Positions 57,287 through 57,547 of a DNA stretch of 64,000 bases are shown piece after piece (position 1 is the stretch's first letter; each line of letters starts with the position of its first letter). The notes under the pieces are model-generated. The model had not been told where the DNA came from. It worked only from the letters and a program-made list of their open reading frames with translations, and ran no database searches. The DNA is taken from the NCBI RefSeq assembly GCF_003334405.1, contig NZ_QOWM01000001.1; one strand, given 5' to 3'. The position numbers and the translations under genes were made by a program. This DNA comes from Escherichia coli (GTDB lineage Bacteria > Pseudomonadota > Gammaproteobacteria > Enterobacterales > Enterobacteriaceae).

Positions 57287-57547
57287 TCAATAGGCCGCAC
57301 GGTTGTTTGGTGGCGTCAAAATTGCCGAGGCGTTCCCTGAAGGCCGGGGCAGCCCACATGGATGTGGGCTGAGGGCGCGTTTTACAGGGATGTTACCTCG
57401 CGCCCGACCCGGTAGCCGTAAGGGATAAGCCGAGGGCACCGCGCAGCGGCGATTTTGTTCGCCAGAGCCCGGGGGTGCAGGGGGCGGCGGCGATTGGCCG
57501 CCCCCTGCGCGCTCCTTGCGCCAGTGATTATATGAAGCAATGCACAT
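57287..57547. other. GC-rich palindromic non-coding element (structured repeat or RNA candidate)
   Basis: About 250 bp of visibly elevated GC content with hairpins cagcccaca-tgga-tgtgggctg and cagggggcggc-N8-gccgccccctg; no credible ORF. Confidence 0.5.

Follow-up and report, generated by a model that had tools for sequence, protein, structure and literature searches.

ERIC/IRU and similar repeats are structured intergenic elements of 100-300 bp that are transcribed within mRNAs and whose presence varies between strains. In Escherichia coli, a further intergenic repeat, TRIP1, was named by Rudd in 1999 (Res Microbiol 150:653), and Li et al. 2024 (Genes 15:236; PMC10888264) surveyed it across 6725 genomes of this species. 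The latter authors described five locus-specific types (a to e) with 62-65% G+C, found loci a and c each occupied in both orientations, and reported that inversions arise between TRIP1 copies, 88% of them between TRIP1a and TRIP1c. Their RNAfold predictions on single sequences, made in E. coli only, gave a 'double-Y' shape, and no function was assigned. Here, we analyzed a block between dusC and yohP in a 64,000-nucleotide stretch of E. coli DNA (the window; contig NZ_QOWM01000001.1), which an earlier reading of the letters alone (the original prediction) had singled out as GC-rich and dense in palindromes.

By sequence identity, this block is the known TRIP1c intergenic repeat. With the window mapped to K-12 from the dusC stop (57245 = 2229438) and the TRIP1c coordinates taken from PMC10888264, 273/273 nt are identical between window 57289-57561 and K-12 NC_000913.3 2229122-2229394 (reverse orientation). 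TRIP1c begins at 57289, 44 bp past the dusC stop, with yohP and then mdtQ downstream; the published locus lies 43-44 bp downstream of yohI (dusC), towards yohG (mdtQ) (PMC10888264). The window sequence has 100% matches in K-12 and in thousands more complete E. coli genomes. One of the suggestions first made for the block, an uncharacterised repeat family, was therefore right about the repeat family but not about its being uncatalogued, since TRIP1 has been catalogued since 1999. A literature search on the hairpin sequences and alternative TRIP1 names returned Li et al. 2024 as its sole hit, and what is added here beyond published work is the covariation, the strand call, the Klebsiella and Pseudocitrobacter members, the REP association, and the resemblance to the RNA motif TwoAYGGAY.

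TRIP1 shares with REP/BIME elements that it is a G+C-rich extragenic palindromic sequence located at the 3' ends of genes and between convergent ones, that it is a recombination substrate, and, in Klebsiella, that REP units adjoin it. It differs in having a branched fold of ~270 bp rather than single hairpins of ~35 bp, in numbering three to five copies rather than hundreds, and in lacking the REP consensus within TRIP1c. Unlike ERIC/IRU and miniature inverted-repeat transposable element (MITE)-like repeats, with which it has no sequence similarity, TRIP1 showed no terminal inverted repeats or target-site duplication.

To describe the fold across the family, we aligned 32 distinct copies from Escherichia, Pseudocitrobacter, and Klebsiella and derived an RNAalifold consensus, which comprises 75 pairs in 12 helices, with 99.2% of cells forming standard pairs. 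Seventeen pairs were changed on both sides (compensatory) among these copies. None of 500 column shuffles reached the observed percentage paired, number of both-side-changed pairs, number of both-side-changed cells, or covariation score, and sliding the 3' partners by 1-3 columns left at most 2 compensatory pairs and about 40% pairing. Conservation of the TRIP1 fold, compensatory changes included, is thus clearly detectable in three genera or more, which bears out the idea that the block is a structured nucleic acid. The parts of the fold and its surroundings in the window are as follows.

57289..57561, + strand: TRIP1c repeat as catalogued, 100% identical to K-12 2229394..2229122
57311..57464, + strand: 5' domain, a long interrupted closing stem (helices 2-6, 29 pairs) with a junction of two hairpins and a side hairpin (RNAalifold, pair counts)
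57350..57371, + strand: hairpin 1, a 9-10 bp stem (perfect inverted repeat) with loop AUGGAU, GGA at 57360-57362
57373..57405, + strand: hairpin 2, a 7-bp lower stem, an internal loop, and a short upper stem with loop AGGGAU, GGA at 57388-57390
57439..57449, + strand: side hairpin CCGC-GCA-GCGG (helix 10), whose pair 172-178 is G-C in 23 copies and A-U in 9
57477..57508, + strand: helix 11, a 12-bp perfect G+C hairpin with an 8-nt loop, no T-run, and four compensatory pairs
57509..57558, + strand: helix 12, GCGCUCCU (57509-16) paired with AGGAGCGC (57551-58) around a variable 34-nt interior
57274..57288, + strand: weaker upstream extension common to copies in the alignments (TTnTnGC..TTTA..A.A..)
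56298..57245, + strand: dusC, the upstream flanking gene
57618..57701, - strand: yohP, a convergent small-protein gene
57287..57547, - strand: 86-codon open reading frame (ORF) with a low-complexity Pro/Gly/Ala/Arg product, its frame not kept between copies

The closing stem, which shows covariation, pairs 57311-57348 with 57408-57464 and joins segments 110-150 nt apart. All 32 copies have AUGGAU as the loop of hairpin 1, whereas its stem pairs 80-99, 83-96, and 85-94 covary; the loop of hairpin 2 keeps its GGA in every copy, and the position just before that triplet holds G, A, C, U, or a gap. The two strong perfect hairpins that had been called from the sequence were both recovered, as the inverted repeats CAGCCCACAT/ATGTGGGCTG at 57350-57371 (10 bp, 2-nt gap) and GCAGGGGGCGGC/GCCGCCCCCTGC at 57477-57508 (12 bp, 8-nt loop). 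A Shine-Dalgarno (SD)-like AGGAG is sequestered within helix 12. We also observed that this AGGAG is followed 9 nt on by an ATG opening a 3-codon ORF (ATG AGA GAC TGA) within window 57551-57576; the corresponding AGGAG-ATG ORF of K-12 TRIP1a is 9 codons long and the Klebsiella copies have none, and the ORF is probably due to chance.

Which strand folds can be judged from the G·U and A·C cells. Since G·U cells exceed A·C cells (120:12 overall, 33:10 without the outermost helix, and 12 vs 5 when counted as pair positions), the + strand of the window is favoured as the folding strand, the margin without the outer helix being suggestive rather than decisive. The same asymmetry tells against a DNA-level role, in which the palindromes would serve as a protein-binding or topological site, as double-stranded DNA or as a cruciform (compare BIME/REP with gyrase or IHF), or as a mere recombination substrate. 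Both strands do fold well (z = -4.7 for the + strand, at -143.8 kcal/mol against dinucleotide shuffles, and z = -5.7 for the other), orientation relative to genes is not fixed, REP units are associated with the repeat in Klebsiella, and cruciforms were reportedly proposed by Rudd (as told in PMC10888264), all of which would fit such a role. On the other hand, conserved unpaired loops and interrupted stems are typical of single-strand folds rather than protein-binding palindromes, and the long-range closing stem joins distant segments. We consider a DNA-level role a decidedly poor prospect.

Instead, we propose that TRIP1 is a strand-specific structured element, TwoAYGGAY-like, that is expressed here as part of the dusC 3' region and acts post-transcriptionally as a protein-binding or 3'-end structure, having been dispersed in the past within REP-type mosaics; we give this explanation about an even chance of being correct. 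Because no terminator lies between dusC and TRIP1c, read-through from dusC would be expected to yield the + (GGA-loop) strand as a dusC 3' untranslated region, and read-through from yohP would transcribe the strand opposite to the GGA loops. Both strands would be reached in this way, since dusC and yohP are convergent with no terminator on either side. The TRIP1 RNA would then act after transcription, as a stable 3'-end structure offering two GGA loops to an RNA-binding protein. On this proposal, the element would have spread to several loci as a dispersed repeat and may now persist in E. coli as old, divergent intergenic haplotypes and as a homologous recombination substrate.

Strong G+C hairpins between convergent genes that have no other terminator could also be taken for an intrinsic or bidirectional terminator serving dusC and yohP. 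However, a scan of 57100-57800 found no terminator-like site on either strand, no T-run follows any hairpin on either strand, the element is far too large, K-12 TRIP1a stands downstream of a separate canonical aqpZ terminator, and no 3' end has been mapped in the repeat, all of which make this explanation highly improbable and agree with the original prediction that the block is not an intrinsic terminator. We also weighed an independent small-RNA gene, transcribed from a promoter of its own and ending in a non-canonical way at the 3' side. Such a gene would account for the free orientation relative to neighbours, and a weakly conserved A+T-rich sequence (TTTAAT / TACAAA) does lie just upstream of the core in Escherichia-type copies, but these upstream hexamers are poor and inconsistent among copies, and no sigma-70-like promoter adjoins TRIP1c in the scan of 57100-57800. 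With no terminator, no 3' end mapped by Term-seq, and no annotation as an RNA gene in RefSeq, a small-RNA gene seems very doubtful.

In composition, the block is as striking as had been claimed: TRIP1c is 64.1% GC against 50.9% for the whole window and ranks as its richest 273-nt stretch, with 0.016% of 273-nt windows equally GC-rich, and the block first outlined nearly coincides with the catalogued 57289-57561. In 100-nt windows, GC is 0.60-0.73 over 57300-57550 and 0.32-0.41 in the flanks; the flanks of 57289-57561 have a G+C content of 36-38%. Several reading frames are open on both strands because the DNA is GC-rich, and we rejected the 86-codon minus-strand ORF as a gene. Apart from the existence of the ORF itself, the one indication of coding is a K. 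aerogenes record that annotates an 'uncharacterised protein' over a TRIP1 copy. Against this, the product is of low complexity, the longest open frame switches both frame and strand between copies, indels are tolerated, and substitutions track base pairing rather than codons, leaving next to no chance that the ORF encodes a protein; the block had been called non-coding and the ORF an artefact, and both calls hold. None of the window's 8 matches to the REP consensus (a GCCKGATGCGRCG-type palindromic unit) falls within 57200-57650, which upholds the view that the block is not a REP. These 8 matches (0.7 expected) include clusters at 50021-50149, 53935-53947, and 60239-60278, which we regard as ordinary REP/BIME. 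Altogether, TRIP1c is neither a gene, nor a REP, nor a terminator.

To look for related RNAs, we searched Rfam with the TRIP1c region and 11 related loci. The sole family resembling the 5' domain was TwoAYGGAY (RF01731; Weinberg et al. 2010), which matched 57303-57454 at 30.9 bits (E = 0.013 in 1.1 kb) and K-12 TRIP1a at 30.6 bits, so that the covariance search, recommended from the outset, did return a named family, at a score under its 43-bit gathering threshold. Like TwoAYGGAY of Psychromonas ingrahamii, TRIP1 has a closing stem, 1 nt, a 9-10-bp AUGGAU hairpin, 1 nt, and a 7-bp stem with an internal loop and a short GGA-loop stem. The two are also alike in that the closing P1 stem is sometimes long and that they occur in multiple copies (in Psychromonas, for TwoAYGGAY). 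The two adjacent hairpins of TwoAYGGAY carry the hexaloops AYGGAY/ARGGAY. Loop 1 of TRIP1 is AUGGAU and loop 2 is A-N-GGA-Y, mostly AGGGAY, a form that also occurs in Weinberg's Psychromonas rows. A 2025 preprint describes TwoAYGGAY RNAs as one very stable and one weak hairpin and as 'relatively unexplored'; TRIP1 has the same strong/weak asymmetry. Unlike TwoAYGGAY, TRIP1 is far more G+C-rich and has, in addition, a side hairpin and a 3' domain of ~85 nt. A separate Rfam match, to AgvB, was seen at 57535-57595 on the - strand, downstream of yohP and on the yohP strand, with 22.9 bits against a threshold of 56 (E = 0.096), and was treated as chance.

RF01731 belongs to Rfam clan CL00106, the same clan as CsrB, as we confirmed by scanning the K-12 csrB locus. 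CsrB has about 20 GGA sites. Like the CsrA-binding RNAs CsrB/CsrC and McaS, TRIP1 presents GGA in hairpin loops; unlike CsrB/CsrC, it has two such sites and no promoter or terminator of its own. The two loop GGAs (57360-62 and 57388-90) are on one strand and 28 nt apart, a spacing that we take to be within the range bridged by a CsrA dimer. Gardner and colleagues have put forward CsrA binding by TwoAYGGAY RNAs as an untested proposal (PMC4333381), and the CsrA consensus obtained by SELEX is RUACARGGAUGU with the GGA in a hairpin loop (PMC2896534). In the E. coli copies, hairpin 2 reads UACAGGGAUGU, which agrees with this consensus at 11/12 positions. With both strands counted, the window has 9 occurrences of the motif CANGGAYG, a lower number than in shuffles, and two of them are the TRIP1c loops. 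CsrA would be the prime candidate partner of the GGA loops. We can take this further and suppose that TRIP1 is an enterobacterial G+C-rich branch of TwoAYGGAY whose two GGA hexaloops bind one CsrA dimer, with sense copies tying their host mRNAs to the Csr network or acting as low-copy CsrA sponges, a specific version that we regard as unlikely.

The repeat is not confined to this locus. All 5426 complete E. coli genomes carry similar DNA, at a median of three places per genome; comparison across strains, which had been put forward as a check on presence or absence, thus revealed no genome without it, and the number of places varied from 1 to 10. Paralogues in E. coli lie at aqpZ-lysO (TRIP1a), putP-efeU (TRIP1b), and alx-sstT (TRIP1d). 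Within the 64-kb window, BLAST found no second copy of the block, and further genomic copies, which the original prediction had advised looking for, were found in K-12 at aqpZ-lysO and putP-efeU, giving three copies there in all (TRIP1a 915016-915281, TRIP1b 1080855-1081000, and TRIP1c 2229122-2229394). TRIP1c is 94.3% identical to the K-12 aqpZ-lysO copy, and the putP-efeU copy aligns as two pieces, without query positions 66-168. TRIP1b is defined by a 125-bp internal deletion, and this short form is present in about half of E. coli genomes (PMC10888264). In the window, a repeat search identified two imperfect direct repeats 125 bp apart that bound exactly the segment lost from TRIP1b and from the short aqpZ-lysO form:

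57332..57349, + strand: left imperfect copy of the direct repeat, GTTCCCTGAAGGCCGGGG
57457..57474, + strand: right imperfect copy of the direct repeat, GTTCGCCAGAGCCCGGGG

The short form probably arose via slippage or recombination between these repeats. Inverted alleles are not simple flips, as their junctions, and even the last dusC or alx codons, differ. No terminal inverted repeats were among the repeats found in the block, and neither a target duplication nor a clean empty site was seen at alx-sstT (K-12, BEN2908, and N32) or aqpZ-lysO (K-12 and ERL06-2497), where no insertion junction can be read because the alleles differ over the whole spacer. The N32 TRIP1d allele, for instance, substitutes the entire alx-sstT spacer together with the last alx codons. 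Judged from these alignments, the E. coli copies look like old intergenic haplotypes swapped through flanking homology, not recent insertions.

Some observations on these alleles stand apart. In NU14, a 13-bp perfect hairpin (GATAAGCTGCGAT..ATCGCAGCTTATC) contains the stop codon of dusC; the window allele has no such hairpin, and the last dusC codons differ between the two. The K-12 alx-sstT spacer contains an extra 75-bp G+C-rich repeat (CCCTCTCCC..GGGAGAGGG..GGGTGAGGG), presumably BoxC-like, that is absent in BEN2908, and this slot has three alternative fillings (K-12, BEN2908, and N32). A 42-kb record annotated as a plasmid (pZ1323HEC0475-2) has a chromosomal macA-ybjX-ybjD-aqpZ-lysO-hcp-hcr-poxB segment and is the source of the short aqpZ-lysO form, and several PLSDB 'plasmids' of 0.3-5 Mb are whole or partial chromosomes.

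Outside E. coli, BLAST against chromosomes mis-filed in the plasmid collection found 13 TRIP1 places in one K. pneumoniae chromosome. TRIP1 is also present in K. aerogenes, K. variicola, Pseudocitrobacter faecalis, P. vendiensis, Kluyvera georgiana, E. albertii, and another Escherichia species, and in one Citrobacter record. A pattern scan of species genomes with CGTTCCCNGNAGGCCGGGG gave mostly chance matches in high-GC genomes, and the taxonomic range of the repeat is at least as wide as the taxa found. Three other contigs bearing TRIP1 most likely reflect enterobacterial contamination or mis-binning: one of 583 bp labelled Bacillus sp., one from a Desulfacinum metagenome-assembled genome (MAG), with the copy at its end, and one from a 'Proteobacteria' MAG. 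The annotated Klebsiella loci all lie between convergent genes (5/5), as do 12/16 resolvable Klebsiella and Pseudocitrobacter copies, with 0 between divergent genes (crude ORF calls). As a family, TRIP1 occupies the 3' ends of genes, in most cases where two genes converge. A REP lies ~45 nt upstream of most Klebsiella copies, which also have, in two subfamilies, ~100 nt of extra common 3' sequence that is often followed by a second REP; these REPs flank the copies outside the TRIP1 core, and TRIP1 is a component of REP-containing mosaics in this genus. In K. pneumoniae CP125156.1, a tandem REP-TRIP1-REP-TRIP1 array holds copies at 1064-1278 and 1501-1715 of the retrieved stretch.

Several results weigh against an RNA element acting from the 3' region of its host transcript. 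The TwoAYGGAY score is under threshold, and no Rfam match was obtained for the Klebsiella copies or in larger searches. The CsrA crosslinking and immunoprecipitation sequencing (CLIP-seq) table of Potts et al. 2017 (Supplementary Data 1), which covers one growth condition and includes unannotated regions with coordinates, has no peak in or adjoining TRIP1a or TRIP1c and no peak starting in 1080800-1080999, where most of TRIP1b lies; dusC and ybjE (lysO) are marked 'No' in all four of its Yes/No columns, whose headers were not read. Likewise, the Term-seq data of Adams et al. 2021 map no 3' end in TRIP1a or TRIP1c, the one seeming match being digits of a p-value. These negatives are weak, given that transcripts may be scarce and that reads of repeats 94% identical to each other may have been discarded. 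Orientation is not fixed either: TRIP1c is inverted in NU14 between the same genes, and TRIP1a is antisense to aqpZ and lysO in K-12 and sense in ERL06-2497, so read-through would make the GGA strand in some alleles only. Moreover, the short form persists even though both GGA hairpins are missing from it, and the compensatory differences between genera could date from founder copies rather than reflect selection on resident copies. Taken together with what had been named as grounds for setting the block aside, the outcome is divided: the family is already catalogued, and it is small rather than present in many copies; a conserved secondary structure is detectable; and the two datasets queried gave no evidence of a transcript.

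Many of these observations would suit a selfish or neutral dispersed repeat, whose structure serves propagation only (for example through a single-stranded DNA or RNA intermediate and a REP-associated or IS200-like transposase, now or in the past) and has no host function, with rearrangements and incidental 3' hairpins as side effects. The copy numbers, the tandem array and REP flanks in Klebsiella, the occurrence of both orientations at one locus, the internal-deletion forms, the filling of the same intergenic slot by other repeats in other strains, the documented inversions between copies (PMC10888264), and the lack of a CLIP peak or 3'-end signal all point in this direction. However, neither terminal inverted repeats nor target duplications nor clean empty sites were found, with filled and unfilled alleles differing across the whole spacer; no transposase gene is consistently nearby; and no TRIP1 copies were found in the phage collection. 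In addition, loops that stay invariant over three genera next to covarying stems point to stronger constraint than is usual for decaying relics. We therefore view a selfish or neutral repeat as possible yet rather unlikely, and retain the strand-specific, post-transcriptionally acting element as our proposal, with the doubts given above.

As a genome feature, TRIP1 is ordinary, having been a named repeat since 1999, while its core resembles TwoAYGGAY, an orphan motif grouped with CsrB. In natural E. coli, TRIP1 drives megabase inversions between aqpZ and dusC. Annotators should treat the 86-codon ORF as an artefact, and likewise any 'hypothetical protein' called over a TRIP1 copy. If TRIP1 were indeed a branch of TwoAYGGAY and its two GGA loops bound CsrA, a repeat orphaned for 25 years and an RNA motif orphaned for 15 would both gain a function.

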